Under the pieces are notes generated by a model that ran no database searches, had not been told where the DNA came from, and was given only the letters and a program-made list of their open reading frames with translations. From Bacilli bacterium (GTDB lineage Bacteria; Bacillota_I; Bacilli_A; RF39; UBA660): a DNA stretch of 60,271 bases. The DNA lies in the NCBI GenBank assembly GCA_022801735.1, contig JAAWSW010000001.1, forward strand, positions 1 to 60,271, written 5' to 3'. Of this stretch, positions 24,286-51,910 are shown piece by piece; the stretch's first letter is position 1, and every line of letters begins with the position of its first letter. Position numbers and translations under genes: made by a program.

Positions 24286-24356
24286 CTCAAATAATTAAAG
24301 AACTATTCTAACGACATAGAAAGTTAGCACCTTAAATAGTAACTATGTCTAATTAA
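24286..24356 (-). promoter_or_regulatory. CRISPR leader (71 nt between the csn2 stop and the first repeat)
   Basis: On the minus strand the leader ends ...ATTATTTGAG directly before GTTTTAG. A possible -10 TAGAAT lies at 24305-24310. A 7-10 bp inverted repeat GACATAG...CTATGTC spans 24313-24349. Confidence 0.6.
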
Positions 24357-25031: not shown

Positions 25032-25348
25032 AGAATAAGTAACCTTTCATCATTATCAACTATTTTAGAATTATTACTACCTATTACATATTCAATTTGA
25101 GCATACTGTTTTTCTGTAACTGTAAGCATTTGAACAATACCTTTTTGAGGTGCGTTTTTTCTAACTCTTTCCATCAAATACTTAGTTTGTCCAGAATTTA
25201 AAGTTAATTTAGAATAAACAGATTCTTGTAACATTAAAAAACCTTCATTAATTAAAAATTTTCTAAATTTAATATAATTTTTTCTATCCCTAGCATAAAC
25301 ATTAGGTAAGTCAAAAAATACAATTGTCCTCATCGCCCTATCCCTCAT
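25028..25348 (-). CDS. cas2: Cas2
   Basis: 'MRDRAMRTIVFFDLPNVYARDRKNYIKFRKFLINEGFLMLQESVYSKL' is colinear with S. pyogenes Cas2 'MSYRYMRMILMFDMP...'. I chose the ATG at 25348 rather than the track TTG at 25357. Confidence 0.9.
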   Translation of the reverse strand: MRDRAMRTIVFFDLPNVYARDRKNYIKFRKFLINEGFLMLQESVYSKLTLNSGQTKYLMERVRKNAPQKGIVQMLTVTEKQYAQIEYVIGSNNSKIVDNDERLLIL

Positions 25349-26210
25349 AAAATACAAAATCCTTATATATTACGTTGTTTTCTAACACTAACAGTGTGTT
25401 TTTTACATATAGTGAAACAATATCTTTAACTGTATATAATTTACCATTGAATTTATATCTTTCATTAAACAAATTTACTAAATCCATTTTACAATTAGAG
25501 TCAAATTTTCTAGACTGATTATAATAAACAAAATTATCAATAATAATTCGAAATGGCTCCATTAAGTCACAAGATAAATTAAAATTATTAAATTCACTTT
25601 TATGATTAATTCCTATTTGTGTAATATAACCATTACTAACCACTTCTTTATTAACTGTAGATAAAAGAATTGCATATCCATAATTAAGCATAGAGTTAAT
25701 ATCATCATCACTATTGCGAATAAATTTTTTTCCAAATAAAGAATTGAAATAAACTTTGGCAGCATGTGCCTCTCTATTAGTTTTATCCCCTGGATTAACC
25801 TCATCTATATAAGAAATCAATAAATTAGTATTATTACTTTTAATTTTCTGTAACAATAACATCTGATTCATTATTTTATTTTTTACTATTTTTTGCCATA
25901 AAACATCTTTATCTTTTTTTAACCATTTAGTTTGAAATAAAATCTTTTTGGTAGAATTATGACAATTATAATATGATGAAAGTTCGCCAAAGGGATTATG
26001 TTTCTCATCACAAAAAATAATATTTATTTTACTTTGAGATAATTCTTTAAGAAGATATGAAGAAATAGATACTGAAATAGAATCAACTATAACAGTATCT
26101 ATCTCCGACAAATGAATATATTTTTCATCCAAATCTTGCTTTACTACTAAATATTTATTTTTATAACTTATTTTAGACGCATTACTAATTACTACTGTTC
26201 TAAAACTCAT
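25338..26210 (-). CDS. cas1: Cas1
   Basis: 'MSFRTVVISNASKISYKNKYLVV' resembles the type II Cas1 N-terminus. Length is 290 aa. It overlaps the cas9 stop by 11 nt. Confidence 0.93.
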   Translation of the reverse strand: MSFRTVVISNASKISYKNKYLVVKQDLDEKYIHLSEIDTVIVDSISVSISSYLLKELSQSKINIIFCDEKHNPFGELSSYYNCHNSTKKILFQTKWLKKDKDVLWQKIVKNKIMNQMLLLQKIKSNNTNLLISYIDEVNPGDKTNREAHAAKVYFNSLFGKKFIRNSDDDINSMLNYGYAILLSTVNKEVVSNGYITQIGINHKSEFNNFNLSCDLMEPFRIIIDNFVYYNQSRKFDSNCKMDLVNLFNERYKFNGKLYTVKDIVSLYVKNTLLVLENNVIYKDFVFYEG

Positions 26211-29200
26211 ATGTATCTCCGTATAATCCAGTTACTGAATTATAAATAATTTTACCATGTTCAATAATTCTTTTTTCTTTTTTGCCAAATGCAGACGATA
26301 ACTCATTGTTAAATTCTTTCAAATTTGCTGTTTCCCTATTAAATTTTAATAATCTTAACATCTGTACTATAATAATTTCTTTCTCATGAACAGTTAAAGT
26401 ATCTATTCTATCAATCATAAAATTATTTTTCATATTTGGAACTAAATCATTATATAGTTTATATTCACTTTCTATTTTATCCACAATATAAATTACAATT
26501 TCTGATAATTGTTTATTATAAACTTCTTCAGTAATTTTATCTGTTTCTTTGTTGTTTAAAACTCTATTCAAAGAATATTTCCACTCTTTTAAATGCTCTT
26601 TATCTATAATAAATTCTTTAGCATTACAAACTTCAACCTTATCAGTAGCACCTCTCAATGAACATATTTGGCCATTCCAATCAATAATACTATGAAATGG
26701 AATTTTATCTTTAATAATTTCTACACTTTCATTATCTTTTAAACCTAGTAAATTTTTAATATAATTTATTTTTGCACTATCATTATTTAATTTATCAATA
26801 TAAATAGGCATTCCTATCATTCTTTGAGAAGTTTTGCCTTTTTTATTAAATTTAACTATAACCCCATAACCAGGGAGTACACGACTATATCCACCATATA
26901 ATTCTGTAGATAATCCTTTTTTTAATGATGTAGTTTTAGTTCCCTTTTTAGACATATTTTGTTCATAAAATTGTCCAGTCCTAATTTCAGTTTTTTTACT
27001 AACTAAAATATCAGAATTATAAAGTGTATTAGTAATAGTATCAATAAATTTTGCATTATCAATTAAAACTTCACCAGTTTCCTTATCAAATGGAACTATT
27101 TCAGGATCTATATTATTAATAAGATATCCATATTTTTTATTGTATTTATATTTCCCACTCTGATAGATTTCGTAATTATTTTTCTTTAAAGTTTCAAAAT
27201 CAACATCCTTAAAGAAAGCATCTTTATAAACTCCTAAAACTGTCGCTAAATAAGCATCATGTGTATGGTGAAAATCATTTAAACTTCTATATTTAAATAA
27301 TTCAAATTTACTTCTAAAATCACTAGAAAAACTTGCCTTCAAATATATAACCTTTGTCTTTTTATAATAAGTATTTAAAATGTTAGCAATATGTTTAGTA
27401 ATTTGTCTAGTTTCTACAATTTGTCTGTTGATAAAACCATTTATATCTGCATCACTATATTTATATCTTTTTAAATTATTAATTTTTTTATCAGAAAGCA
27501 ATCCTTTTTTCTTAAGGTTTTCCCACCATACAATATTAGATTTACTTCTAAATTGTTCAGGTAATACAAAACTAGACGCTTTTGCTTGATTTTCTTCTCT
27601 AAGAACTAATGCTTTGTTATCAATAGAATCATCTTTAATTAATGTTCTAGGAATTATATGATCAACCTCATAATTATCCAAATTATCTATATTTAATGGT
27701 CTACCAGAATATAAACTTTTTCCCTCTTGAAGGAAATATAAATAAAGTTTCTCTTTACTAAGTTCCTTTTCTTCTTTACCATTCAATTCCTTAAATAATT
27801 GATTATAATTATCAATACTATTTTTGGCTTTTTTATAGGTTTCCACTAATTTATTTTTCCTACTTTGAGTTCTTTGTTTCTTACCGTCTTCACGGGCCAT
27901 CTCTAAAATAATATTATATGGTTCATAACCTATATAATTTACAATTTCTCTAACAATTTTTAAAGACTGATAAATCCCTCTCTTAACAGCAGGTGAAGTT
28001 GCTAAATCAGCAACTACAGAATAATCTAATTTAGTAATATTCTCTATCACATTAAATTTATCTATCATTTTTTGAAAATTATATTTTTTATCATTAATTA
28101 TTTGCATAAAATTTAACTTAGTTTCAATCATTAAATCCATTATTGATTTTTTTGTACCTTCATTTTTATCTTCATAATACTTAGTTTCAAGTAATTTTCG
28201 AGACAATTGACTCCAACCTTTATATTTCTTAGATAGAATTTTTCTAATTTTTGAATCAGACAATTCACAATATTTTTGTACAACCTTTCTTTCAAGAATA
28301 CTTTTATCCTCAAAAATAGTTATCCATTCAATAATTTCCTCTGCATCATTAATATCATAATTTGTATTTTCAAAAATGCCATCTGGACCAAAAAAATCTA
28401 TATATGGTTGCATATTGTTAGCAAATTTATTTAAAGCAGAATAACCTGTAATATTAAAATCATTATACATAGAAAACTCATCTAATGTTTTTAAATAATC
28501 AACAAATACATTATTGGTAATATTACCATTCTGTTTTAAAAACAATTCATTATAAACCTTTCCAATCATATCTGATGTTAATTTTTCATTATTAACTTTG
28601 ATTTGTTTTAATTCATTATAAACTTTAAATTTAGAATATAATATAGAATTGTTTGGTATAGATGGTTCATTAAGAATGTATGTACAATTAGATATCATTC
28701 TTTTAATAAACTTTTCTGCAGACGCATCTAAATCGACTACTTCTTCAAAGTTATATGGAGTAATCTTAACATTATCCACTTTTCTTTGAACCCATGAATT
28801 CTGATTATTTTGTCCCTTTATATTTGTAGTATTATTTAAAGGGCCTACAAAATAAGGTATTTTAAATGATAAAATTTTTTCAATTTTATACACACCATTT
28901 ACTTTATCAAGCAAAAATGGATAATACTTCCCTTGATTTTCTATAATTGTTTTAAGTTCTTTTTTATTAAGTTGATATGGATATTTTCCATTATCAGAAT
29001 CTGTAATTCTTGGCATAAATTGCTCATTTTCCATTTCAGCCAATTTAATATCTTGGTATAAAGAAATAAGTTTTTGATCATTAATATCACGCAAACATAT
29101 CTCAATACTCTTTTTAACAGCATTGATAAAATCTTTATAGCTCATATCATTATGTACATATTTATCATATACACATTTAGTTTTACCAATTGTTCTTAAA

Positions 29201-30240
29201 ATTTTATTATATTCTTTCCTATTTTTACACAATATACTTTTCAAAAATTTTAAATCTTCTTTATGCTTTTCAAATTTTGAAACCATAAGATCTGAAATGT
29301 TTGTATGGTCTGCTCCTTTAAATAATGACTTCAAAAAAACCATATCATAAACTTCTTTAAATAAGTTTATAACTTCCATATTAGTACTTATTATTTTTTC
29401 TATTTCATCTAATTTACCATCATAATCAGTCCCTTTAAAACTAATAGATAATTTAGAATCATATTCTATTCCAAATAATTTCACTAAATCTGATTTATTA
29501 CCAATCATTAATTTGGTAAATTCGTTGATAAAATTTTTATTTTCAAAAGTTTTCAAACATTCTTTAATTAATCGTTCTCTATCCTTTTTAGACTCAGCAA
29601 GTAAAGCCTTTTCCAATTCTTTATAATCGATATTACCTATATGTTCTTCATCAAAACCTAAAGAATCATTAATTTTAACCAAAGTTTCAAACGATTGATG
29701 TAATTTATCTATTATATCCAAATTATCTACATCAAAATTATCATTAGAATATAAAAAATTACCTCTATACTTAATAATATGATGTAAAGCCAAATAAACA
29801 AGTCTTACATCCTCTTTTTGTGGATTATTTACAAGCCTACTACGCAAATGATAAATTGTTGGATATTTATCATGAAAGTTTTTTATCATATTTTTTTCAG
29901 CAACTGACATATGGATTGTTTTGTTTTCTAAATCATCTTCTCTATAAAATGATTCTTTAAGTTTTTTGAAAAAATTAACATCATTTTTTTGGATTTCATC
30001 GCAAAAAATTTCTTGCAATAATTTAATACGTTCTCTTCGTCTATCATATCTACGTCTAGTACTTCTATAAAGTCTTCTTTCTGCTGCACTTTGAGCCTCA
30101 TCAAATAATCTAACACCCCATAATTTTTTATTACCTTTACGCATAACTTTAAAATTATCATTATTAATAACTGCCCATCCAACAGATGATGTCCCTATAT
30201 CTAAACCAATACTATATTTCTTTCTATTATCTACTGTCAT
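26200..30240 (-). CDS. cas9: Cas9 (type II-A, 1346 aa), with catalytic motifs intact
   Basis: 'YSIGLDIGTSSVGWAVI' is RuvC-I. 'YEVDHIIPRTLIKDDSIDNKALV' is HNH. 'NDFHHTHDAYL' is RuvC-III. SD is GGAGGAG. There are no internal stops. Confidence 0.97.
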   Translation of the reverse strand: MTVDNRKKYSIGLDIGTSSVGWAVINNDNFKVMRKGNKKLWGVRLFDEAQSAAERRLYRSTRRRYDRRRERIKLLQEIFCDEIQKNDVNFFKKLKESFYREDDLENKTIHMSVAEKNMIKNFHDKYPTIYHLRSRLVNNPQKEDVRLVYLALHHIIKYRGNFLYSNDNFDVDNLDIIDKLHQSFETLVKINDSLGFDEEHIGNIDYKELEKALLAESKKDRERLIKECLKTFENKNFINEFTKLMIGNKSDLVKLFGIEYDSKLSISFKGTDYDGKLDEIEKIISTNMEVINLFKEVYDMVFLKSLFKGADHTNISDLMVSKFEKHKEDLKFLKSILCKNRKEYNKILRTIGKTKCVYDKYVHNDMSYKDFINAVKKSIEICLRDINDQKLISLYQDIKLAEMENEQFMPRITDSDNGKYPYQLNKKELKTIIENQGKYYPFLLDKVNGVYKIEKILSFKIPYFVGPLNNTTNIKGQNNQNSWVQRKVDNVKITPYNFEEVVDLDASAEKFIKRMISNCTYILNEPSIPNNSILYSKFKVYNELKQIKVNNEKLTSDMIGKVYNELFLKQNGNITNNVFVDYLKTLDEFSMYNDFNITGYSALNKFANNMQPYIDFFGPDGIFENTNYDINDAEEIIEWITIFEDKSILERKVVQKYCELSDSKIRKILSKKYKGWSQLSRKLLETKYYEDKNEGTKKSIMDLMIETKLNFMQIINDKKYNFQKMIDKFNVIENITKLDYSVVADLATSPAVKRGIYQSLKIVREIVNYIGYEPYNIILEMAREDGKKQRTQSRKNKLVETYKKAKNSIDNYNQLFKELNGKEEKELSKEKLYLYFLQEGKSLYSGRPLNIDNLDNYEVDHIIPRTLIKDDSIDNKALVLREENQAKASSFVLPEQFRSKSNIVWWENLKKKGLLSDKKINNLKRYKYSDADINGFINRQIVETRQITKHIANILNTYYKKTKVIYLKASFSSDFRSKFELFKYRSLNDFHHTHDAYLATVLGVYKDAFFKDVDFETLKKNNYEIYQSGKYKYNKKYGYLINNIDPEIVPFDKETGEVLIDNAKFIDTITNTLYNSDILVSKKTEIRTGQFYEQNMSKKGTKTTSLKKGLSTELYGGYSRVLPGYGVIVKFNKKGKTSQRMIGMPIYIDKLNNDSAKINYIKNLLGLKDNESVEIIKDKIPFHSIIDWNGQICSLRGATDKVEVCNAKEFIIDKEHLKEWKYSLNRVLNNKETDKITEEVYNKQLSEIVIYIVDKIESEYKLYNDLVPNMKNNFMIDRIDTLTVHEKEIIIVQMLRLLKFNRETANLKEFNNELSSAFGKKEKRIIEHGKIIYNSVTGLYGDTYEF

Positions 30241-30855: not shown

Positions 30856-31422
30856 ATGAACGACTATTCTAACATGAATAATTATATGCCAGATGATTTT
30901 GAATATTTAAATAGACTATATAATTTTGGCATGCCAAATATGATGCCAAATAACGGGATGATGCAAATGCAAAATCCAAATATGGGGGAAAACATTCAAT
31001 TAAAGCAAAAATTAGCAAAACAAGCAGGCGATAACATGAACTTCAATAAAGGAAATTATAATCAACAAATAAATCCTAACGAAGTTTATGACATTTATGG
31101 TGGATTTATTCGTGGAAATATGTTCCCAGATTTATATAACCAATATAAAAATAATAAACCATTTGAAATCGAGCCAATGAATGAACAAGCAGAATTATTA
31201 ACATATCTTGATGCTTATAGTTTTGCTGCTCATGATTTAAATCTATATTTAGATAATAATCCAAACGATAGAGATATGATTAATCTTTTCAAAGAATACG
31301 CAACCAAAGCAAATCAAATTCAAAAAGAATATGAACAAAAATATGGACCACTATTTGTGGATGCCAGCACTACATATCCATGGGCATGGAATGATTCACC
31401 ATGGCCTTGGGAAAATAAATAA
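30856..31422 (+). CDS. cotJB: CotJA-CotJB fusion spore-coat protein with M/N/P-rich N-terminal low-complexity region
   Basis: The C-terminal half 'NEQAELLTYLDAYSFAAHDLNLYLDNNPNDRDMINLFKEY...KYGPLFVDASTTYPWAWNDSPWPWE' is CotJB-like. The preceding 'GGFIRGNMFPDLYNQYK' resembles the CotJA core. The gene lies directly upstream of cotJC. Confidence 0.7.
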   Translation: MNDYSNMNNYMPDDFEYLNRLYNFGMPNMMPNNGMMQMQNPNMGENIQLKQKLAKQAGDNMNFNKGNYNQQINPNEVYDIYGGFIRGNMFPDLYNQYKNNKPFEIEPMNEQAELLTYLDAYSFAAHDLNLYLDNNPNDRDMINLFKEYATKANQIQKEYEQKYGPLFVDASTTYPWAWNDSPWPWENK

Positions 31423-31436
31423 AGGAGGAAAAAATA

Positions 31437-32018
31437 ATGTGGAAATATGAAAAAAAACTTCAATATCCTGTAAACATTAAAAAGAAAGACCCAAAACTAG
31501 CAAAATATATTGTCACACAATATGGTGGTCCTGCAGGAGAACTTGCCGCTGCTTGGCAATATTTAGATCAAAGATACAATATGCCAGATGATAGAGGAAA
31601 GGCATTACTTACAGACATTGGAACTGAAGAATTAGCCCACGTTGAAATTATTTCAACAATGCTATATCAATTAACCAAAGATGCCACTCCAGAAGAAATG
31701 AAAGCGGCAGGCTTTGGTGAACAATACGCACAGTTTGGTAATGACCTATTCCCATCAGACTCATTTGGAAATCCATTTACAATGGCATACATAAAAGTAT
31801 CTGGAGATTATATCGCCGATATCGAAAGTAACATGGGAGCAGAACAAAGAGCACGTGCAACATATGAACACTTAATGGATTTAACAAACGATCCAGACGT
31901 TCTCGCACCACTTGCATTCTTAAGAGAACGAGAAATTGTTCACTATCAAAGATTTAAAGAACTACGCAATTACTATTTAAAAAACAAAATAGAAGTTGAA
32001 AAAAATAATACTCGATAA
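31437..32018 (+). CDS. cotJC: CotJC (manganese-catalase-family spore coat protein)
   Basis: 'MWKYEKKLQYPVNIKKKDPKLAKYIVTQYGGPAGELAAAWQYLDQRY' and 'GTEELAHVEIISTMLYQL' are characteristic of CotJC. Confidence 0.9.
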   Translation: MWKYEKKLQYPVNIKKKDPKLAKYIVTQYGGPAGELAAAWQYLDQRYNMPDDRGKALLTDIGTEELAHVEIISTMLYQLTKDATPEEMKAAGFGEQYAQFGNDLFPSDSFGNPFTMAYIKVSGDYIADIESNMGAEQRARATYEHLMDLTNDPDVLAPLAFLREREIVHYQRFKELRNYYLKNKIEVEKNNTR

Positions 32019-35379: not shown

Positions 35380-36087
35380 TTATTGAGAAAGTGTTGCCCT
35401 ACTCAAATTTAAATATTGTCCATTATTTACAATAAATTCTTTTTTACCATTAAAATTATCATTGTTAACTATATCACTATCGCCAACTGGACCAGTCATA
35501 ATAGCATAATATCCACTACCTAAACTTTCAACGGTATATTTCCCTGCTGGAATATCAACACCAATTTTATAATATCCCGCTTGATTATAATTTTCTTGTT
35601 CATTAATTGTTTCATAAATTTGTTTAGCGCTTTCAACACCTAGTTTTTCAAATGCATTAATATTAATCAAAACTCCTCTTGTAGTTAAATTGCCAGCACC
35701 ATGAACTTTTACATAACCAAAACTATCGAAATTTTCATTATCAATTATATTGCCGCCAGCATCTTCCTCAGAATAATAGGAACCACTACCATCAAATTTA
35801 ATAAACGCATATTCACCAGAAGGAATTTCACCTTTAACATAATCACCTGTATCAAAAACTAATTTTTCCTCCATCAGGTCAGTTATTTTAACTATCATTT
35901 TCTGAGATTCACTAAGTTCTTTTTTCTCCTCGACTTTTGTTTCTTCTTTAACTTCCTTTTTATCTGTTTCATTTTTTGAAGAATCATCAAATATAGTACC
36001 AAAAATTCCTATAACCAAAACAACTGCAATTACAATTAATACTATCTTCCCCTTTTTATTGCTAGTCCCTTTTTTTATTTCATCCAT
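35380..36087 (-). CDS. Membrane-anchored extracytoplasmic protein with two internal repeats (hypothetical)
   Basis: N-terminal TM helix, a K/E-rich linker, then two related modules ('GDYVKGEIPSGEYAF..GSGSYY' and 'GYYKIGVDIPAGKYTV..GSGYYA'). Confidence 0.5.
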   Translation of the reverse strand: MDEIKKGTSNKKGKIVLIVIAVVLVIGIFGTIFDDSSKNETDKKEVKEETKVEEKKELSESQKMIVKITDLMEEKLVFDTGDYVKGEIPSGEYAFIKFDGSGSYYSEEDAGGNIIDNENFDSFGYVKVHGAGNLTTRGVLININAFEKLGVESAKQIYETINEQENYNQAGYYKIGVDIPAGKYTVESLGSGYYAIMTGPVGDSDIVNNDNFNGKKEFIVNNGQYLNLSRATLSQ

Positions 36088-36259
36088 AATATCACCTCTG
36101 ACTTTCCCTATTTTACAATTTACAACATACTACTAATAACTATATAATTCTTAACAACATCCCTCCTTATTTTCATAATAACATAATCTAAATAAAAAGT
36201 CACCCATTAAGTGACTTTTTATTTACGGTTTCTATTATAAAATGTTATTAGGTGATACT

Positions 36260-36484
36260 ATGGAAAACGATGGTATATATAAAACAATAGGTAAAAACAT
36301 AAAAAAATACCGCAAATTAAAAAGCATAACTCAAGAACAATTAGCTCAAATGGCTAATCTATCATATGGTTATATAAAAAATTTAGAAGCACCTAATGTA
36401 AACGCAACAATTTCCATAGAATCTTTAAATCTTATCGCTAAATGCCTAGATACTACCATAATAAAACTTTTAGATGACGCATAG
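36260..36484 (+). CDS. XRE-family helix-turn-helix transcriptional regulator
   Basis: 'IGKNIKKYRKLKSITQEQLAQMANLSYGYIKNLE' is an HTH_3-type motif. Start at MENDG with an AGGTGAT SD. Confidence 0.7.
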   Translation: MENDGIYKTIGKNIKKYRKLKSITQEQLAQMANLSYGYIKNLEAPNVNATISIESLNLIAKCLDTTIIKLLDDA

Positions 36485-36521
36485 TTCTCTAAAAGTTTTT
36501 ATATTAAACACTTTAAACCAA

Positions 36522-37358
36522 TTAAAATAATTCCCTAACAACTAAATCGTCAGACCATAAATTATTATTTTTACCCAACAATAAATTTTCATAAAACTTA
36601 ATCAAATAACTATTATCCTCATTAATACCTAAATAATTATTATAATAACTACTTCTAACTAAAGCATTTCTATAATAAATAGACTTATCCTTAAATAAAT
36701 TATTATCAACATTATAACCAAGATTAATCAAATATTTTTGTATAAACACTGCCGTAGTCCTAGTATTCCCTTCTCTAAAAGGATGTACTTGCCATATACT
36801 AGAAGAAAACAAAGTAATATTTCTTATAATATCTACCATAGGCATATCCTTATAATTCTTTTCTAATTCCAAAGATATATCATAGTCTAATGACTCCTCC
36901 AAGTGTTTATAATCACCATATGACACAGTATCATTGTTTAATATTCTTTCCTGTTTAGAAATATCAACATTTCTAAATTCTCCTGCAAATTCATAAACAT
37001 CTTGAAATAAATACTTATGAATAAATTTCAAGTAATCAACCGATAATTCAAAATCATCATTTTCAAGTAATTCAACAATTCTAGTTGAAACAAAATCACA
37101 TTCTAATTCATTATAATTAACATCATTTTCCGATTGTTTTTCTAAATAATATTCTTTCAAATTTTTTGAAACCTCTTTAATAGCCTTATTTCCATAAATA
37201 TTTTCCTCTACTAACTGCTCTAGATATTTAGAAGGCTTTAAATTATCTACTTCTTGAAGACCTATTGCCATATTCCACTGTAATTGCTTAATACAATTCG
37301 TAGAGGTATACTTCTCTTCATATTCATTAACACTCGAATCCCATTTTTTTTCGTCCAT
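36522..37358 (-). CDS. Fic-domain protein (probable AMPylase family)
   Basis: The Fic motif is 'HPFREGNTRTTAVF' (canonical HxFx[D/E]GNGRxxR, here with G-to-T at the second Gly). SD is AGGAGG. Confidence 0.8.
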   Translation of the reverse strand: MDEKKWDSSVNEYEEKYTSTNCIKQLQWNMAIGLQEVDNLKPSKYLEQLVEENIYGNKAIKEVSKNLKEYYLEKQSENDVNYNELECDFVSTRIVELLENDDFELSVDYLKFIHKYLFQDVYEFAGEFRNVDISKQERILNNDTVSYGDYKHLEESLDYDISLELEKNYKDMPMVDIIRNITLFSSSIWQVHPFREGNTRTTAVFIQKYLINLGYNVDNNLFKDKSIYYRNALVRSSYYNNYLGINEDNSYLIKFYENLLLGKNNNLWSDDLVVRELF

Positions 37359-37438
37359 GAAACGCCTCCTAAATCTATATCAATATTATAACATGTAAAA
37401 TATGAAAAAAGTAAATAAAAAAGGCTTAAGATATAAAC

Positions 37439-39157
37439 TTAAACCAATTCAGTTTCATATAAATTTTTATATTCGATACAATTTTTCATAAGTTCCTCAT
37501 GCGTTCCAGTAGCAATCACCCTACCATCATCAACAAATAAAATTCTATCACTATTAATAACTGTAGATAGACGGTGCGCAATAATTAAAATAGTATACTC
37601 ACCCTTCATATTATTAATAGCCATTTGTATATCCTTTTGAGTTTCATTATCCAAAGCACTAGTTGCCTCATCAAATAAAATAATTTCTGTTTTCTTAAGT
37701 AACGCACGAGCAATTGCTAGTCTCTGCCTTTGTCCACCAGATAAAGTGATTCCACCCTCACCAACTAAAGTATCATACTTATCTGGTAAAGTCATAATAT
37801 AATCATGAATTTGAGCAAGTCTGCAAGCCTCTATCATCTCTTCTTCAGTCATATCATCTTTAACTAAAGATAAATTTTCTCTTATCGAAAAATTAAATAT
37901 ATAAGGATCCTGAGTAATTAAAGAAATATTTCCTCTAATAGAATCACAAGTCAAATCATTAATATTAACACCGTCAATAGTAATAGATCCATCATTAACC
38001 TCATATAACTTGGTTATCAAATTAAATATAGTACTTTTACCACTTCCACTTTTACCTACAAAAGCAACTGTTTCATTCTCATTAATTTTAAAATCTAAGT
38101 TGTTAAGAACCATCTTATCATTATAACCAAAAGAAACATTCCTAAATTCAAAGTTGCCACTAGCCTTATTTAAAACAACATCACCAAAAGTTTCTTTCTT
38201 AAACTTATCATGTGAAATTATTTCAAAAATACGGCTACTACTCAAATTATAATCCTTTAAATACTGTGTTATGTAATTAAAATTCTCAAGTAAATTAAAC
38301 ACATGATCTTGGTAATTATATAAAACAATAAACATTGGAAAAACAAGCAAATTATGACTAATTAAAAATACCCCTAGAATTATAAAACCAAACTTTCCTA
38401 ATTCTTCGACAGTTCTAATTAAAGACCACAAAAGGCTATTATTTCTAATCATCTTATAACGTAAATTATTAGTAGTAGTAAATCTCTCTTTCATTTTATT
38501 AGTAAAACCTGCAATCGCATTTAATACCTTAATATCCTTAAGACCACGTATTAACTCCGATACTATTCCAGTATTATTTTCATTTAACTTTCTAATTTCC
38601 TTATCAATTTTAAAATAGTACTTAAATCTCAAATGATTACAGAATGAAATTAAACAAAGAACAAATACATAATAACAAAATACATATTTATTAACTAAAA
38701 ATACAGCTACCATTATTCCCAAATTAGCCATTGTTGTAATAATTGTATGAGATAATTCTACAAAAACATACCTCACCTGGTTACAATCATTATTTAGCCT
38801 ATCTGCAAAAACACCAGACGAATTTGTCAATAACTCCTTTTGTTCCAATAATAACGTTTCAGAAGCAAGTTCACACTGTAGTTTAACTAATATACCCCTA
38901 CTGAATTTATTAGAAGCAACATTACCTATTGCCCAAAAAACTTCTGTACCTACCGAAAACAAAAATATCAAAAAACCAACAAAAATCAAATTATTAACAT
39001 TCTGATTTGTAATTTCAATAATTAACTGTGCCACTAAAAGTGGATTTAAAACATTACAAACAGTAGTCAAAATACCGAAGAAAATAAATATAAATAAATA
39101 TCTTCTATACCCATACGCATATTTCCATGTTTTCTTCAAACTCTTTAACGATTCCAT
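37439..39157 (-). CDS. ABC exporter, fused permease plus ATPase (MsbA/MdlB-like)
   Basis: A six-TM N-terminal half, then 'GKSGSGKST' (Walker A), 'LSGGQRQRLAIARA' (signature) and 'ILFDEATSALD' (Walker B). No C39 peptidase domain. Start at MESLKS with a GGGAGGATG SD. Confidence 0.85.
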   Translation of the reverse strand: MESLKSLKKTWKYAYGYRRYLFIFIFFGILTTVCNVLNPLLVAQLIIEITNQNVNNLIFVGFLIFLFSVGTEVFWAIGNVASNKFSRGILVKLQCELASETLLLEQKELLTNSSGVFADRLNNDCNQVRYVFVELSHTIITTMANLGIMVAVFLVNKYVFCYYVFVLCLISFCNHLRFKYYFKIDKEIRKLNENNTGIVSELIRGLKDIKVLNAIAGFTNKMKERFTTTNNLRYKMIRNNSLLWSLIRTVEELGKFGFIILGVFLISHNLLVFPMFIVLYNYQDHVFNLLENFNYITQYLKDYNLSSSRIFEIISHDKFKKETFGDVVLNKASGNFEFRNVSFGYNDKMVLNNLDFKINENETVAFVGKSGSGKSTIFNLITKLYEVNDGSITIDGVNINDLTCDSIRGNISLITQDPYIFNFSIRENLSLVKDDMTEEEMIEACRLAQIHDYIMTLPDKYDTLVGEGGITLSGGQRQRLAIARALLKKTEIILFDEATSALDNETQKDIQMAINNMKGEYTILIIAHRLSTVINSDRILFVDDGRVIATGTHEELMKNCIEYKNLYETELV

Positions 39158-39201
39158 CTTACATCCTCCCTCACAAAACATTCATATTAATATTTACTTA
39201 A

Positions 39202-39759
39202 TTATACACCAATAGGCTCAATAATTCTATCAACAATACCATAATTTAATGCAATATCACTCGATAACCAAAAATCACGTTCCAAATTTATTACCATTCC
39301 TTGATCTAATTTTGTATTCATTAAAATAATATCAGTTAACGTCTGTTTAATCTTCTTCATATGCTCAGAAGCAATAATAATATCAGTAGCCTGACCTTCA
39401 GTACTTCCTAATGGTTGATGAAGCATAACCTCACTATGTGGAAGCATTTTTCTTTTTCCCTTTGTTCCTGACATTAATATGATTGAAGCCATTGAAGCGC
39501 ATAAAACAATACCTATAGTTACAACATCAGATTTAATATATTTCATTGTATCATATATCATAAAACCACTATTGATTTCACCACCAGGTGAATTAATATA
39601 TAAAATAATATCATCATGACTCTTTGAATCCAAATATAATAACTTAGCCACAATTTCTTTAGCACTTTTCTCATCAATATTCCCAGATAAAAATACTATC
39701 CTATTTTTTAACAATTCATTATAAATTTCAAATTCTTTAGGCAAAGAAAACACCCTCAT
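39202..39759 (-). CDS. ClpP-family serine peptidase paralog with a shortened N-terminus
   Basis: 'YINSPGGEINSGFMIYDTM', 'CASMASIIL' (Ser), 'MLHQPLG' (His) and 'LERDFWLS' (Asp). It is about 8 aa shorter than canonical ClpP and lacks the conserved N-terminal P-x-V-(I/V)-E axial-loop segment. The ATG lies 23 nt inside the upstream AAA+ gene. Confidence 0.8.
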   Translation of the reverse strand: MRVFSLPKEFEIYNELLKNRIVFLSGNIDEKSAKEIVAKLLYLDSKSHDDIILYINSPGGEINSGFMIYDTMKYIKSDVVTIGIVLCASMASIILMSGTKGKRKMLPHSEVMLHQPLGSTEGQATDIIIASEHMKKIKQTLTDIILMNTKLDQGMVINLERDFWLSSDIALNYGIVDRIIEPIGV

Positions 39760-40645
39760 TCTTAATCATAAATTCAGAAATATTCATATCTTCCTTACTA
39801 ATAGTAAGTAACTGATTACTATCCATAATATCTTTAGTCCTAGTTGCATGTTCCAGTAATATCTTATTATACAAATTATCAACTAAACGTCCATTCCCAC
39901 TATTTTCTATATTAGTCTTATCCAAAAGTTTCTTAAACTCATCTTCAGCATCAAAATCCAATTTCAAATTACTATCATTTATTTTTTTCTTAAACATTTG
40001 AAATAATTCATCAGCGCTATAATCATTAAAATCTATAGTATAACCAATCCTAGACTTAAGTCCTGGATTAATATCAATAAATTCCTTCATTTGATTTTTA
40101 TAACCCGCAAACACAAATACAGTCTCCTTCTTTTCCATCTCTTTAATTATTTCTACAATTGCATCCTTCGCAAAACCATTTTCTTCATCATTATTAAATC
40201 CATATGCTTCATCAATAAATATTAATCCACCTCTATATGTATCAAGTATTCCCTTAGTTTTAATCGCCGTTTGTCCAACATATCCTGCAATACAAGCCTG
40301 CGGAGTAATTTCAACAACCGCATTATTCTTAATATAACCCATACTATATAAAATATCTGCAAGTAAACGAGCAACCGTTGTTTTTCCAGTACCTGGATTA
40401 CCACTAAATACCATATGAAGATTTAAACTATCTATATTAGCCTTATCCTTAACTTTATTAATAAATTCCAAATAAGAAACTAATTTTCTAATTTCCCTTT
40501 TAATATTTTCAAGACCAATTAAATTATTTAAATCCTCTAAACCATTACTATGAACTTCATAAACTTGAAAATTAATCCCATTTCTATTTTCAATCTCACT
40601 TAATCTCTTATCAATTTTTTTTAAAATACTATCAAAATCATCCAT
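39737..40645 (-). CDS. CbbX/SpoVK-type AAA+ ATPase
   Basis: 'MVFSGNPGTGKTTVARLLADIL' (Walker A), 'GGLIFIDEAYGF' (Walker B) and 'VFVFAGYKNQM' (sensor region), as in the SpoVK/CbbX/EccA family. Start at MDDFDS with a GGGGGTGAGG SD. The C-terminus is '...NEGVFFA'. Confidence 0.8.
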   Translation of the reverse strand: MDDFDSILKKIDKRLSEIENRNGINFQVYEVHSNGLEDLNNLIGLENIKREIRKLVSYLEFINKVKDKANIDSLNLHMVFSGNPGTGKTTVARLLADILYSMGYIKNNAVVEITPQACIAGYVGQTAIKTKGILDTYRGGLIFIDEAYGFNNDEENGFAKDAIVEIIKEMEKKETVFVFAGYKNQMKEFIDINPGLKSRIGYTIDFNDYSADELFQMFKKKINDSNLKLDFDAEDEFKKLLDKTNIENSGNGRLVDNLYNKILLEHATRTKDIMDSNQLLTISKEDMNISEFMIKNEGVFFA

Positions 40646-40754
40646 AACAATCCTCACCCCCTAAAAAAAATAGTACAAACTAATCGTACCATTTTTTATT
40701 ATCAAAAATTTAAACTAAAATGACTTTTATAAAAGTAAATAATTATATTTCTTA

Positions 40755-41279
40755 CTATGCCGCCTTTTTATCTGATTGTCTAGTTAACACTTTCACAGGA
40801 ACTTTAACATCATTTTTATCATTATTATTTTCAAAGGCTGATGATTGTAAACCACTAATTATTTTTTTCAACTCCTTAAGTTCCGCCAAATCAGTCTGGA
40901 TTTGTTCTAATTTATCCATATCCTTTCCTCCTTGTTCAAAAGGAAGGCTGCCATGAACTAAAGAAAATTTTCTAAATTTAGATGGACTCAATCCAACAAT
41001 CCTAGTAAATTGCTCAGAAAAGTATTCAAGTGAATTAAAACCATTATTAAGCGCTACCTTAAGCATGGAATCATCTGTATAAGCAATTTCATGCATACTG
41101 TTTTGGATTTTTCTACTATTTATATATTGATTTATAGTTAAACCAGTACACTCTTTAAACTTTCTCATCAAATGAAATTTATTAAAATGAAAAACCGAAG
41201 CAATATCATCAATCGAAATAGAATCATTTACGTTATCATCAATATATAAGCAAATATCACTTATTAAATTTTCGTTCAT
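40755..41279 (-). CDS. AraC-family HTH regulator with a non-canonical coiled-coil C-terminus
   Basis: The AraC double HTH ('ISIDDIASVFHFNKFHLMRKFKECTGLTINQYINSRKI...GFNSLEYFSEQFTRIVGLSPSKFRK') is N-terminal. There is no sugar-binding domain. The C-terminal ~65 aa are coiled-coil and charged. Confidence 0.7.
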   Translation of the reverse strand: MNENLISDICLYIDDNVNDSISIDDIASVFHFNKFHLMRKFKECTGLTINQYINSRKIQNSMHEIAYTDDSMLKVALNNGFNSLEYFSEQFTRIVGLSPSKFRKFSLVHGSLPFEQGGKDMDKLEQIQTDLAELKELKKIISGLQSSAFENNNDKNDVKVPVKVLTRQSDKKAA

Positions 41280-41343
41280 GTGCTTCCCCCCTTCAGCATC
41301 ATTTTAACAAAAATTTCAAAAAAGAATTTAAACAATAATGACA

Positions 41344-41371
41344 TTATAACACAAATTAACATATTGTCAAA
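41344..41371 (-). promoter_or_regulatory. Near-consensus sigma-A promoter of the AraC-type gene
   Basis: The minus strand reads TTGACA-16 nt-TGTTATAAT. Confidence 0.5.
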
Positions 41372-41400
41372 TTATAATAAACATCTAAAAAAGACTTAAT

Positions 41401-41709
41401 TTAAAGTCTTTCTTCCTTAGCAAGCAAATACTCTCCTAACATGTTTTTAGCAACCTCAACATAAACAAGAATAGCCTCAACATAATCTTCCTCTGGCATA
41501 CTATCTTCATTAATATCCAAAATTTCTTTACTAGTTAAATAATGTAACTCTATTCCATCATTACTAGCCATCATTTCAATACTAATAATTAATTCTTTTA
41601 TAGAATCTATAACTTCCTGCTTTTTTTCAAATAAACTCAAAGGTTTTACCGACTCAATATACTCAGTAAAAGCATTTTGTAATTCATTTATATTAACGAC
41701 TTCTTCCAT
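41401..41709 (-). CDS. Acidic 102-aa protein, unknown function
   Basis: Track ORF 41401..41721. The start preferred is the ATG preceded by GGAG (MEEVVNINEL...). It overlaps the upstream 255-aa gene by 17 nt. A terminator hairpin AAGACTT/AAGTCTT lies at its stop. Confidence 0.45.
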   Translation of the reverse strand: MEEVVNINELQNAFTEYIESVKPLSLFEKKQEVIDSIKELIISIEMMASNDGIELHYLTSKEILDINEDSMPEEDYVEAILVYVEVAKNMLGEYLLAKEERL

Positions 41710-42460
41710 TTGTGTCTCCATAATATAATTGATCTATCTGCCCAGCATTATTCCCATTTAAAATTTTTCTTTCTTTTAAATGGGTCAGTTTATATAGTGG
41801 ACTCTGCTTTTTATATCGTTCTTTTGCTTCCCTCTTCGCACGTTTTAAATCCATATCACGAAAATGATGAGGATTTTCATTAACCATTTCATTTAATTCT
41901 TCTATTTTCTTATTAGCATAACTAATTGAAACAGAACCACTTAATTCATTACGCGCTATTTCCAAACCAGACAATATCTGCATTTTTACTGCCGAATTAT
42001 CAATTTCATTAAAAACATCCAAAAAAACACCAAAATCACGAATAACCTTATTAACATGACCTGTTTGAGTTAACATTGCTCTTTCATAATCAACATTTAA
42101 CTGTTCCACCATTGATTTTAATTCAGCAACCTTGTGCATATCTACTGTACTTTGATTAAGTCCAGTATAACCCATTTCGATATTTTCATCTTCTTGTTTT
42201 TCATTTAAATCTTGATCCTCAAGTATTTGATTTGCAACATCGTTAGACATCTGAATTCTATCATCACGTTCACTAATTACTGCTGAATACTCCTCTGGTG
42301 TTAAATAACATACTTTTTCAAACCCATTCTCAGTCCAAGTAACAATATAATTACCATCATTATTTCTTACAATAGAAGTATTTCCCAAAGAATCAGAAAG
42401 CCCATAATAACGCCCATATAAAATATCTGCTACGTTTTTAACCTTATTAATATCAACCAT
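41693..42460 (-). CDS. 255-aa protein, unknown function
   Basis: Long ORF with a GGGAGGA SD. I recognise no motif. The C-terminal segment is basic. Confidence 0.5.
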   Translation of the reverse strand: MVDINKVKNVADILYGRYYGLSDSLGNTSIVRNNDGNYIVTWTENGFEKVCYLTPEEYSAVISERDDRIQMSNDVANQILEDQDLNEKQEDENIEMGYTGLNQSTVDMHKVAELKSMVEQLNVDYERAMLTQTGHVNKVIRDFGVFLDVFNEIDNSAVKMQILSGLEIARNELSGSVSISYANKKIEELNEMVNENPHHFRDMDLKRAKREAKERYKKQSPLYKLTHLKERKILNGNNAGQIDQLYYGDTNGRSR

Positions 42461-42580
42461 CTTTATCCTCCCATCAACATCATTATAATATATTATTAAC
42501 TAAAAAGAAAAAATAATAATCAATAGTATACATATATTGACACCAATAATTCAAAATAGTATATTTAATATGGTGATTAT

Positions 42581-43600
42581 ATGGAAATATTAATGTTATT
42601 TATCAGTCTTATCGTTATATTAATTGCAGCAGAACTGTTTGTAAATGCAATAGAATGGTTAGGAAAATTATTAAATCTATCAGAAGGAGCAGTAGGTTCA
42701 GTATTAGCAGCTGTTGGAACCGCCTTACCAGAAACTTTAATCCCAATTATTGCACTAGTTAGTGGAACACACGAAAGTGCCGAAGAAATTGGAATTGGAG
42801 CAATACTAGGTGCACCATTAATGCTATCAACATTAACAATGTTTGTAACAGGTGTTGCGGTTATAACCTTCAAACACAAAAGAAAACATAAAGATAAAGT
42901 AGTTGTACATTATAATACTGTAAGCCGTGATTTAAAATTCTTTATTTTTTCATTCACAGTTGCCTTATTATGCGGATTTATTCCAAGCGAACTACAATCA
43001 GTAAAAATATGTTTAGGTGCTCTATTAGTATTAAGTTACTTTATTTACATTATTAAAATCGTAAAAGAAAATAGAGAAAGCGAAAGTGATGTCCCAGACC
43101 TATACTTTGCCTTTGGCCATAACAAAATCATGAAAAAGAAACAAGCAATATTATTAGTCCTATTCCAAGCAATAGTCGCTTTAACACTTATAATCATAGG
43201 TGCTGAAGTATTTGTCGATTCAATTTCATATGTATCAAAATTATTAAACATTCCAGCATTTGTACTAGCAATCATCATTACACCAATTGCTACTGAACTT
43301 CCAGAAAAATTTAATAGTGTCATTTGGATATCTAGAGAAAAAGATACACTAGCACTAGGAAATATCACAGGAGCCATGATGTTTCAAGCCTCAATTCTTC
43401 CAGCAGTTGGAATTTTACTAACTGATTGGACACTAAATAGTTCTGGAACAATTATTTCATCACTAATAGCAATCGCCTCAGCAACCCTTCTATTAACAGA
43501 ACTAAATATGAAGAAACATATGACTGTAAAGATGTTATTACTATGTGGACTATTCTATTTTCTATTTTTAACACTAGTTTTAATAGGAGTTATAAGATAG
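42581..43600 (+). CDS. CaCA-family sodium/calcium exchanger membrane protein (YrbG-like)
   Basis: Two alpha-repeat signatures are present, 'AAVGTALPETLIP' and 'PIATELPEKFNS', within about 10 TM helices. Confidence 0.8.
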   Translation: MEILMLFISLIVILIAAELFVNAIEWLGKLLNLSEGAVGSVLAAVGTALPETLIPIIALVSGTHESAEEIGIGAILGAPLMLSTLTMFVTGVAVITFKHKRKHKDKVVVHYNTVSRDLKFFIFSFTVALLCGFIPSELQSVKICLGALLVLSYFIYIIKIVKENRESESDVPDLYFAFGHNKIMKKKQAILLVLFQAIVALTLIIIGAEVFVDSISYVSKLLNIPAFVLAIIITPIATELPEKFNSVIWISREKDTLALGNITGAMMFQASILPAVGILLTDWTLNSSGTIISSLIAIASATLLLTELNMKKHMTVKMLLLCGLFYFLFLTLVLIGVIR

Positions 43601-50619: not shown

Positions 50620-50874
50620 TTAACTAGATAAATTTAAATACTTTTTTTTCGTTGATTCCCCGCCCTTAATATGTCTAATATCCATGTGATATTTAAGTAT
50701 TTGCTGAACAGATAAATATAAGCCCTCATCAATAACTTTTAATCTATCTTTCAAATCTTTATGAACAGTACTTTTTGATACATTAAATACCTTTGCAATC
50801 TCTCTTAATGTATCGCCTGTATCAATCATATATTCCGCTTCCAATATAACTCTCTTAACAATATCATTTTCCAA
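50620..50874 (-). CDS. spoIIID: Sporulation transcriptional regulator SpoIIID
   Basis: 'REIAKVFNVSKSTVHKDLKDRL...ILKYHMDIRHIKGGESTKKKY' closely parallels B. subtilis SpoIIID. A probable TTG start preceded by AAGGGG gives about 84 aa. The track ORF start at 50943 looks too long. Confidence 0.8.
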   Translation of the reverse strand: MENDIVKRVILEAEYMIDTGDTLREIAKVFNVSKSTVHKDLKDRLKVIDEGLYLSVQQILKYHMDIRHIKGGESTKKKYLNLSS

Positions 50875-50963
50875 ACATATCGCCCCTTTATTTAAGTATA
50901 TAAATTTGGAAAAATAATTAGACCAAAATATAATATATAACAATAAATAGGCGCCAAATAATT

Positions 50964-51824
50964 TTATAATTGATCTAATAAAATTTTTAAATAATTACTA
51001 TCCTCTATTTTATTAATCCCAAAACATTTTTTACCTAATTCCTTAAATGAGGCTCCACAGTGATATAAAATACTATCATCGATAATTATAAACCTATCAT
51101 GAAATTTATAATTATTAATTATTTCAATATTATCATACTGTTTCATATATTTTGTTATTGCTGTCTTATCAATATTTTTAGTATATATTTTTATAGGAAC
51201 TGTTATATTTTTAATTAAATTAAATAACGTCCTCCCAGCATAATTATCTATAATTATTATTTTTTCTTTAGCATTAGTTAATATTTCCATCATCAAATTA
51301 TATGCATCATATATTTGCCCTTCAAAAAACAAATGATTATTTGGAGTATTTTGAAAATTATCAAAAGTCTCCTTTAAAAACTTTATATCATCATCGTGTT
51401 TTAAAACCAAACTATTTATATACCTTTGTTCCAATAAACTATTAGACATAAATTTTCTCATGGCTACAAAAGCACGCATAATATCTACACTTATTTGGGC
51501 AGCTTTTTCCGTTCTCAGTACTGAAGCAAGCATCGCAACACCCTGCTCAGTAAAAACGTATGGTAACTTTCTAACCCCACCTTGATTACCAATTTTTGAA
51601 GTTCCATTTTGGAACTTCAAACCATTATATTCTTCCTTTGTTAACTGAAAATAAAAATCTTCTGGAAATCTATTAGTATTTCTTTTAACCGCTTTATTTA
51701 TATCCTTTGTTCCATTCGCACATCCATACAATTTTGCTAAATCTGAATCCAACATCACCTGTTTACCTCTAATTTCATATATCATATTTTTAATATCATT
51801 ATCCTTAATCATAATTTCATTCAT
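50964..51824 (-). CDS. ORF6N (KilA-N-like DNA-binding) domain protein with a PLD-like C-terminal domain
   Basis: The N-terminus 'IRGKQVMLDSDLAKLYGCANGTKDINKAVKRNTNRFPEDFYFQLTKEEY...LPYVFTEQGVAMLASVLR' is ORF6N. The C-terminus 'FHDRFIIIDDSILYHCGASFKELGKK' fits an HxK(4)D(6)GSxN-like pattern with K replaced by R. Start at MNEIMIKD with a GGAGGTG SD. Confidence 0.7.
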   Translation of the reverse strand: MNEIMIKDNDIKNMIYEIRGKQVMLDSDLAKLYGCANGTKDINKAVKRNTNRFPEDFYFQLTKEEYNGLKFQNGTSKIGNQGGVRKLPYVFTEQGVAMLASVLRTEKAAQISVDIMRAFVAMRKFMSNSLLEQRYINSLVLKHDDDIKFLKETFDNFQNTPNNHLFFEGQIYDAYNLMMEILTNAKEKIIIIDNYAGRTLFNLIKNITVPIKIYTKNIDKTAITKYMKQYDNIEIINNYKFHDRFIIIDDSILYHCGASFKELGKKCFGINKIEDSNYLKILLDQL

Positions 51825-51910
51825 TATAAACACCTCCATTTTCAAATAAGCCCTTTTATTCCCTCATCTATAATATACAATTTTTGTATATCAAATCCCT
51901 GCTTCAAACA

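Follow-up and report, generated by a model that had tools for sequence, protein, structure and literature searches.

On a contig of a Bacilli bacterium (60,271 bp, analysed whole and hereafter called the window; GC content about 28% and uniform throughout), an AAA+ ATPase of the CbbX/SpoVK type and a short ClpP paralog are encoded by overlapping genes, and we read the two products as a probable dedicated two-component ATP-dependent protease, operonic with its own MarA/SoxS-like regulator, a reading to which we give a probability of roughly 60%. The genes occupy the minus strand in the order promoter, AraC-type gene, hairpin, AAA+ gene, clpP-like gene, ABC exporter gene and terminator (41370 down to 37423), the four genes being bracketed by a single terminator and a single consensus promoter, which is the sole perfect sigma-70 consensus match within 36000-42600. 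The features are as follows (aa, amino acids; nt, nucleotides; SD, Shine-Dalgarno sequence; HTH, helix-turn-helix; pLDDT, predicted local distance difference test; AF2, AlphaFold2).

41343..41370, minus strand: sigma-70-type promoter in front of the regulator gene (TTGACA, 16 nt, TG-n-TATAAT), with 12/12 consensus positions and the extended -10 TG
40755..41279, minus strand: AraC/XylS-family regulator of 174 aa, DNA-binding domain only, MarA/SoxS-like (HTH_18 and HTH_AraC profiles)
40755..40919, minus strand: last 54 residues of the regulator (MDKLEQIQTDLAELKELKK...KKAA), which correspond to the small ORF (open reading frame) found apart in relatives, here fused or nested (from sequence and alignment)
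40665..40697, minus strand: A/U-rich hairpin in the gap from araC to the AAA+ gene, with a 14-bp centroid stem and a following U run; perhaps a weak terminator or an attenuator
39737..40645, minus strand: CbbX/SpoVK-clade classical AAA+ ATPase of 302 aa (profiles, structure search and AF2 model)
39740..39769, minus strand: flexible C-terminal tail of the AAA+ protein (...IKNEGVFFA), the proposed ClpP-docking element, which also encodes the clpP SD GAGGG and TTG start (pLDDT and sequence)
39202..39744, minus strand: short-class ClpP paralog with intact triad, 180 aa from the TTG (profiles and alignments)
37439..39157, minus strand: half-size ABC exporter of 572 aa, MsbA/ABCB-like, accessory (ABC_membrane and ABC_tran)
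37423..37445, minus strand: intrinsic-terminator-like hairpin and T run closing the operon (consensus scan)

The association of the two genes is confirmed not to be a chance one, as it recurs in every short-form relative that we examined. Relatives of the AAA+ protein at 45-72% identity were gathered through their encoding contigs and through a metagenome scan with a profile of the C-terminal half, and in all short-form relatives (283-325 aa) whose contig continues the gene is then followed by a ClpP gene with an 8-nt overlap (L001-003, L084-086, L092, L093, L102-105, L111, L115, L122 and L123). Wherever a short-form relative has enough upstream DNA, an AraC-type gene precedes the AAA+ gene. 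Judged by gene content, the conserved core is the AraC regulator, a small helical peptide, the AAA+ protein and ClpP. The initial annotation had proposed gene order in related genomes as a check on a module of AAA+, ClpP and ABC exporter; this order held for the AAA+/ClpP pair (15/15 loci) but not for the exporter, which was found in only 4/9. Outside the short forms, no ClpP gene was found within 6 kb at any of 80 other SpoVK-like loci in species-representative genomes (35-47% identity, among the matches listed), and neither ClpP nor AraC occurred in the 15 metagenome loci of long forms with an I/L/M-G-F tail (up to 5 kb on each side). The module does not keep to one chromosomal position: it stands beside L31-rpiB-spoIID in L084 and beside holin-lgt-cofD-whiA in L122, the surroundings always being housekeeping and syntenic. 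In related Bacilli (L117-L121) a canonical clpP stands convergent to whiA; in L122 the module (9302-14566) lies on the other side of holin-lgt-cofD-whiA and a SpaA-domain gene follows whiA in place of clpP, an arrangement that hints at a replacement of the canonical ClpP by the module.

The CbbX/SpoVK type first assigned to the ATPase holds both by profile and by structure, and profile searches confirmed every other domain call of the initial annotation as well. In Pfam the protein matches AAA (8e-13) and AAA_lid_6 (1.9e-8); its best NCBIfam matches are SpoVK (2.8e-60), CbbX (1.1e-55) and EccA (3e-44), all of them under the equivalog cut-offs (203.6 vs 422.95, 189 vs 459.25 and 151.5 vs 466.65 bits, respectively), and the ClpX, ClpA and ClpC models are all absent among its NCBIfam matches. 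CbbX is the nearest solved relative by sequence (E 4e-44, 34% identity), and the best Foldseek matches of the AF2 model (pLDDT 80) are again CbbX (3syl/3syk/3zuh, E 2e-23, template modelling score 0.70-0.75). The protein consists of an N-terminal helix (residues 4-21 in the model, carried by a flexible linker), one AAA module whose GYVG pore loop is modelled as flexible, and an AAA_lid_6 four-helix lid; its last ten residues (293-302) have pLDDT <50 and are predicted to be disordered. Walker A reads GNPGTGKTT and Walker B IFIDEAY, and across the alignment of the relatives both motifs are invariant together with pore-1 Y122-x-G124, the Arg finger R199 and the sensor-2 R253. The criteria given for the SpoVK-CbbX-EccA clade are a GY at sensor-1, an Asn that precedes the first Arg finger, and an Arg at sensor-2 (PMC11513918). 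The window protein carries G181-Y182 (FAGY) at sensor-1, N193 in NPGLKSR and R253 in GNGR, the position four residues past N193 being Lys and not Arg, and it belongs to this higher-order clade of classical AAA+ proteins. A search of protein representatives with the AAA+ alignment returned a superfamily of 24,528 representatives, the best 150 of which, ranked by summed score, are giant multi-AAA proteins.

Its partner is, on the alignments, a genuine ClpP with an intact triad and without the N-terminal gating loop. It matches Pfam CLP_protease (PF00574, MEROPS S14) with 1.9e-61 and 207.6 bits over profile positions 7-180 of 182, and falls below the NCBIfam cut-offs for housekeeping ClpPs (195.8 vs 308.6 bits for TIGR00493, 216.6 vs 249 for NF001368); an AF2 model reached only pLDDT 55 on a shallow alignment and was not used. 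The triad already proposed, with the Ser of CASMAS, the His of MLHQP and the Asp of ERD, aligns with that of solved ClpPs (S97, H122 and D171 in E. coli). Among the best 120 matches to the window ClpP, 24 are without the canonical N-terminus (M-x-L-I-P-x-V-V-E...G-E-R-S-Y-D-I-Y) and begin around M-N-K-L-F-E-N-E-V-Y; these are monophyletic in a tree built on core columns only, and the Ser-His-Asp triad is 100% conserved in them (24/24). Since the alignment of the short ClpP to canonical ones begins only at canonical residue ~15, the axial loop is absent, as had been suspected, the deficit at the N-terminus being ~13 residues and not the ~8 first estimated; the axial-loop motif I/V-P-x-V-I-E is absent in all short-class members and present in 96/96 canonical matches. 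The general roles of the N-terminal gating loops and of the hydrophobic pockets (H sites) of ClpP have been reviewed (PMC9035409). A profile of the short class searched against 5.8 billion proteins recovered ~111 clusters at 90% identity, after which the scores fall to canonical ClpPs, and canonical ClpPs from close uncultured Bacilli are 50-56% identical to the short class.

The docking pocket of E. coli ClpP is made up of Y60, Y62, F82, I90, M92, F112, L114 and L189. At the position of F112 all 24 short-class sequences have Lys, and the corresponding GKRK is found in 111 of the 120 best matches to the short-class profile and so in nearly every member of the class; of the other pocket positions, Y62, I90 and L114 are retained and F82 is replaced by Tyr. 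In most short-class members H-[DE]-L-S takes the place of H-Q-P-L, which the window ClpP and its nearest relative (L001), both of them early branching, retain as HQPL/HQPF.

The junction of the two genes reads ...AAT GAG GGT GTT TTC TTT GCC TAA, where the final two bases of the last Phe codon, together with the G that opens the Ala codon, form a TTG at 39744. Starting there, clpP encodes 180 aa and overlaps the AAA+ gene by 8 nt; the 23-nt overlap of the initial annotation presumed the ATG at 39759, which would give 185 aa. The arrangement T-TTG-NNT-AA, with the same 8-nt overlap, is found in 15/15 relative loci with a readable junction, other gene callers give the 180-aa form for the same organism, and the TTG at 39744 is most likely the start of clpP. 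The gene was also said to have no good SD, which does not hold, since GAGGG precedes this TTG. The translational coupling of the two genes that was proposed at the same time is supported, while the fixed stoichiometry read from it is conjectural. The AAA+ gene itself starts at the ATG at 40645, with a strong SD (GGGGGTGAGGA) before the start codon, and the ABC exporter, full-length and 44 nt after the ClpP stop as originally described, at the ATG at 39157 with the SD GGGAGGA, likewise a strong one.

How the ATPase might dock on ClpP is suggested by its C-terminus and by those of its relatives. The ClpP-docking element of ClpX, ClpA, ClpC and ClpE is an [ILV]-G-[FL] that follows basic residues. 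As had been noted, the window AAA+ protein has no such internal loop and ends in G-V-F-F-A, for which the initial annotation drew an analogy with the tails of proteasomal activators. The tails of the ClpP-linked short forms follow the pattern ...E-[RG]-G-hydrophobic-x-F-x (GGYFE, GGIFD, GGMSFE; EGVFFA in the window), with Phe as the penultimate residue in 77/86 short-form relatives. A sister group of long-form proteins, which measure 475-570 aa and have either two AAA modules or an additional domain at the N-terminus, ends in ...K-[ILM]-G-F, at times plus a few residues, and [ILMV]GF lies within the last 8 residues of 20/34 long-form proteins, as against 2/1063 control ORFs. At each of the three long-form loci inspected, hisS-aspS or holA follows after a gap (13-55 nt) and without overlap. 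The change of Phe to Tyr was seen in 0/15 divergent ClpP-linked loci, even though this single change would give a stronger ATG start to clpP. Because that change is never seen, and because the sister proteins have the terminal Phe without an overlapping gene, we argue that the tail Phe is probably selected at the protein level; the idea of a functional hydrophobic tail gains strong indirect support from sisters that end in a literal IGF or LGF. Among more distant SpoVK-like proteins an IGF-type tail is also found, in Clostridia as well as Bacteroidota (L004, 005, 009, 014, 020, 033, 034, 060 and 067-069). In these and further IGF-tailed SpoVK/CbbX-like proteins (P0125, P0163, P0197, P0211 and others) the AAA modules number one or two, and the N-terminal domains are unannotated or of the Sel1 type. 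A ClpP gene adjoins none of the IGF-tailed proteins noted here, and on their sequences the larger ones may be ClpP partners acting in trans.

In the arrangement that we favour, a hexamer of the AAA+ protein would sit on the ClpP ring, its flexible hydrophobic-x-Phe-x-COOH tails would enter the remodelled pockets between ClpP subunits, much as the IGF loops of ClpX, ClpA and ClpC do and, closer still, the C-terminal tails of HslU or of proteasomal ATPases, and substrates would pass through the GYVG pore into ClpP. That the docking goes through the C-terminal tails is a narrower claim than the existence of the protease, and we give it even chances. More speculatively, the N-terminal helix of the AAA+ protein could recognise the amphipathic C-terminal helix of the regulator and/or the small peptide, which would make the module a self-resetting transcriptional switch, and the ABC exporter, where present, could be an output gene or a remover of the peptide products. 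On a wider scale we can picture, while leaning somewhat against it, an overlooked SpoVK/CbbX branch in Bacillota and Bacteroidota made up of ClpP-dependent unfoldases that dock by their extreme C-terminus (K-I/L-G-F-COOH or hydrophobic-x-F-x-COOH), as the proteasomal ATPases or HslU do on their own peptidases, with an exclusive, gate-less, F112K pair wired to a regulator and a peptide in a gut Bacilli lineage. In this uncultured lineage ClpP would have been duplicated or replaced, losing its gate, acquiring F112K in the pocket and coming to overlap the gene of the ATPase; a link to a MarA-like regulator and to a peptide serving as decoy or adaptor would then have made the pair a self-contained proteolytic switch.

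Several points weigh against the protease as we picture it. The tail codons of the ClpP-linked group double as signals for clpP, E-[RG]-G being encoded by the SD GAGGG or AAGGGG and the Phe codon TTT plus G giving the TTG, so that conservation of the tail alone is not evidence of a protein function; it is in part a nucleotide-level constraint, and to that extent the earlier argument from the hydrophobic tail is weakened. The role of F112 as a pocket residue that binds IGF loops and acyldepsipeptides (ADEPs) is presumed here on the model of the E. coli ClpP-ADEP and ClpXP structures. Deletion of the ClpP N-terminus weakens ClpX and ClpA function in E. coli. A substrate role of the regulator or of the peptide is suggested by gene order and helix similarity only. 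Finally, the characterised CbbX, SpoVK and EccA proteins are remodelling chaperones and not protease partners (PMC11513918).

This last point is also the starting point of a different explanation, in which the AAA+ protein is a chaperone or activase that remodels a client, perhaps in the assembly or activation of the short ClpP, and does not thread substrates into it. The closest structure is CbbX, all characterised members of the clade act on narrow clients (CbbX on Rubisco, SpoVK on MurG), and the survey of the clade reported no peptidase partners; against this, the GYVG-type pore loop, the disordered Phe tail and the IGF C-termini of the sister proteins are hallmarks of a docking unfoldase, and ClpP has lost precisely the gate that an unfoldase would open, so that we regard a pure chaperone role as improbable. 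Another alternative, to us unlikely, keeps the AAA+ protein on ClpP and has the short ClpP ring stacked on a housekeeping ClpP ring, one face serving the CbbX-type AAA+ protein and the other ClpX or ClpC. Canonical ClpPs exist in close uncultured Bacilli, hetero-oligomeric ClpP1P2 is well known from Mycobacterium, Listeria, Chlamydia and Pseudomonas, and the window ClpP differs from most short ClpPs in retaining the canonical HQPLG strand. Yet L122, which is without clpP after whiA, fits replacement better than partnership, and as the triad of the short ClpP is complete a partner ring would be unnecessary for catalysis. The two proteins could also be co-expressed only, as independent stress or quality-control factors of one AraC-controlled operon: unrelated stress genes are often grouped in operons, and the tail conservation of the linked group is explicable by the translation signals of clpP. 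This we think quite improbable, given an overlap of invariant length that persists in 15/15 loci at ~45-72% identity while neighbours and chromosomal position change. The short ClpP subclass is moreover seen only beside this AAA+ subgroup, and vice versa, and a pocket residue and the N-terminus of ClpP have changed in step.

A mobile-element, phage or anti-phage module, be it a prohead-type remnant or an abortive-infection protease with an AAA+ sensor, was considered because of the neighbouring genes. A Fic-domain gene (36522-37358, minus strand; strong match to the PADLOC candidate defence family PDC-S72, 2e-77) lies directly downstream of the operon, the L002 locus has a RhuM gene and a short Fic gene between its araC and AAA+ genes, and a type II-A CRISPR-Cas locus is 9 kb away. 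The ClpP-like protein nevertheless scores 217 bits to true ClpP, as against 83 bits (cut-off 120) and 19.8 bits to the phage prohead and SppA protease models, and both of these identities were rejected; PADLOC gave only generic AAA matches and none for ClpP, so that a known defence system was likewise rejected. Relatives of the AAA+ protein number zero in 2.9 million viral contigs, phage genomes hold SpoVK-like proteins only at <=39% identity, and the housekeeping synteny is conserved and the GC content uniform. A defence or mobile origin therefore appears very improbable indeed. Three of the grounds that the initial annotation had named for abandoning the pair were not found: the genes are co-localised in other genomes, the protease is not of the prohead or SppA type in a prophage remnant, and the triad is unbroken. 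The gene next after the Fic gene is divergent and of the Xre-type HTH (36242-36484, plus strand). The CRISPR-Cas locus (23524-30240, minus strand) is complete and comprises Cas9 (26200-30240), Cas1 (25338-26210), a 109-aa ORF in the position of Cas2 (25028-25357), Csn2 (24357-25031) and an array (23524-24308) in which 12 repeats of 36 nt alternate with 30-nt spacers.

The regulator upstream of the pair matches HTH_18 (1.2e-17) and HTH_AraC (2.3e-17) over residues 13-104, its HTH region spanning residues 2-106 of 174, and the absence of an N-terminal ligand or dimerisation domain fits the minimal activators of the MarA/SoxS type. The HTH domain and the near-consensus promoter first attributed to it thus both stand, while the 'unusual coiled-coil C-terminus' and the terminator behind it have to be revised. 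In several relatives a separate ORF of 34-55 aa lies between araC and the AAA+ gene (L002:6939-7106, L084:7876-7995, L085:7876-7980, L086:1074-1226, L093:4277-4417, L103:4259-4396 and L122:9886-10035), overlapping the AAA+ start in some loci. These small ORFs share the pattern M-x-[KR]-L-E...E-L-K-x-Y-[KR]-x-F-L-x-x-L, and the AraC proteins of the same loci have a similar helix past the HTH domain. The window and L001 have no separate small ORF; the last 54 residues of the window regulator open with M-D-K-L-E-Q-I-Q, are preceded by an in-frame SD (AAGGAGG, 40927-40933), seven nt and an ATG (40917-40919), and align with the free peptides. Because of this internal SD-ATG and this alignment, the supposed coiled coil is read as a copy of the peptide, either fused or internally initiated. 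The hairpin between araC and the AAA+ gene is weak (whole-region z-score -1.35) and was missed by the terminator consensus scan. Small activators of the MarA/SoxS type are classic unstable protease substrates, and peptides of the ComS type control the degradation of ComK by MecA-ClpCP; by analogy the N-terminal helix of the AAA+ protein could have the regulator and/or the small peptide as its client or adaptor, a suggestion that we regard as doubtful.

The exporter contains ABC_membrane and ABC_tran and no C39 peptidase domain by Pfam, aligns to bacteriocin exporter models only from model position ~135-155 onward, and has among its best NCBIfam matches the TAP-type family TIGR00958 (4.8e-87). 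Orthologous exporters (46-79% identity) adjoin the pair or lie within two genes of it in the window, L001, L002 and L085, and none was found in the 4-9 kb of downstream sequence of L084, L086, L092, L102 and L122. Being present in 4/9 loci with enough downstream DNA, the exporter is accessory and not part of the core. A processing and export module for bacteriocins or other ribosomally synthesised and post-translationally modified peptides was rejected on three grounds: a C39 domain is lacking, the exporter is not retained along with the pair, and the small ORFs look like mimics of the regulator tail and not like precursor peptides.

If the reading is right, this is probably an undescribed form of two-component AAA+ protease, one whose ATPase, on its sequence, belongs to no known family of ClpP partners. 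These partners (ClpX, ClpA, ClpC and ClpE) have been regarded as confined to the Clp/Hsp100 and ClpX families. The sole Clp/Hsp100 protein encoded in the window is ClpB (10069-12183, plus strand; TIGR03346, 1138 bits), which is not known to be a ClpP partner. This ClpB, of 704 aa, aligns from model position 144 and is without the N-terminal domain, and its gene is among the few on the plus strand, in a patch of reversed GC skew. We found no description of a CbbX/SpoVK-type AAA+ protein paired with ClpP in the full-text literature available without subscription, and the 2024 survey of the SpoVK-CbbX-EccA clade reported no peptidase association (PMC11513918), in agreement with the view already taken that the pairing is undescribed.

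The system can be compared with several known ones. As in ClpXP, ClpAP, ClpCP and ClpEP, a hexameric AAA+ unfoldase would work with a Ser-His-Asp ClpP, the pairing here being read from the genes, and docking would be expected through a hydrophobic Gly/Phe element in the inter-subunit pockets (the H sites; PMC9035409). Like ClpX, the window protein has a GYVG pore loop, and its sister proteins carry a literal I/L-G-F. Unlike in the Clp proteases, the ATPase is of the CbbX/SpoVK clade and not of the Clp/Hsp100 or ClpX family, the proposed docking element is the extreme C-terminus and not an internal loop, and ClpP has Lys at the F112 position and lacks the N-terminal loops through which the pore is gated and ClpX and ClpA are contacted. 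With PAN, Mpa/ARC, the Rpt proteins, Cdc48 (HbYX) and HslU the module would share an AAA+ ring (of the classical clade in PAN, Mpa and Rpt) on a compartmentalised peptidase and, if our proposal holds, C-terminal tails, flexible and aromatic at the penultimate position, that enter inter-subunit pockets. In the 20S proteasome a pocket lysine binds the terminal carboxylate of the tail, and a parallel with the Lys at ClpP position 112 is possible by analogy. The peptidase is nonetheless ClpP, a serine protease of 7-fold symmetry, and not a 20S/HslV Ntn-threonine protease, and the motif of the window protein and its sisters is hydrophobic-x-Phe-x or I-G-F, not Hb-Tyr-X. Within its own clade the ATPase stands beside CbbX, the red-type Rubisco activase, SpoVK, the MurG activator, and EccA of type VII secretion; those are narrow-client remodelling chaperones with no peptidase partner, whereas the window protein has only a short N-terminal helix and an overlapping ClpP gene. 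A second, diverged ClpP with altered partner specificity is also known from ClpP1P2 (Mycobacterium, Listeria, Chlamydia, Pseudomonas, Clostridioides), ClpR of cyanobacteria and ClpP-ADEP of Streptomyces; those paralogs have Clp/Hsp100 or ClpX partners, keep their N-terminal region and are not operonic with a CbbX-type ATPase.

Around the pair, the combination of a small activator (of the AraC/MarA type here), a small helical peptide and a protease resembles MarA/SoxS-Lon and ComK-MecA-ClpCP-ComS (46 aa), and the resemblance of the peptide to the C-terminal helix of the regulator is what a decoy or adaptor would be expected to show; the window components differ in standing all in one operon, and the regulator or peptide would be a substrate by conjecture only. 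An ABCB-type half transporter encoded beside a compartmentalised protease recalls proteasome-TAP, m-AAA-Mdl1 and ClpXP-HAF-1, from which the exporter differs by its presence in a minority of the loci. Should the proposed protease be real, the partner repertoire of ClpP, a very well studied protease and an antibiotic target, would reach into the classical AAA+ clade, the docking modes of the Clp proteases and of the proteasome and HslUV would be convergent, and a natural gate-less ClpP would be at hand for mechanistic work. It would also suggest that components of proteases lie behind many of the 'SpoVK-like' annotations given to proteins of gut Firmicutes and Bacteroidota, and the regulator-peptide-protease arrangement may be a compact circuit of regulated proteolysis.

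The module is chromosomal: the window and L084 have in common the synteny of spoIID, spoIIID, mreB, NUDIX and typA, and in the window the module sits between NUDIX and typA. Immediately upstream of the operon promoter are two overlapping ORFs of 255 and 106 aa (41401-42460, minus strand), for which neither Pfam nor NCBIfam gave a match and which are absent from the related loci. An ORF6N/Rha-type, phage-regulator-like gene (50964-51845, minus strand) between a DisA-type diadenylate cyclase (DAC) gene and spoIIID breaks the synteny with L084. Sporulation-associated genes in the window encode CotJB, a CotJC-type Mn catalase, SpoIIID and SpoIID (30856-32018, 50620-50943 and 54052-54963). The gene at 57196-60027 encodes a DUF285 'Mycoplasma' repeat protein that also has an ALK/LTK glycine-rich domain. 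At 17452-22867 on the minus strand lies an AddAB-like pair, in which the gene of a 1038-aa UvrD-type helicase overlaps that of a 771-aa PD-(D/E)XK nuclease.

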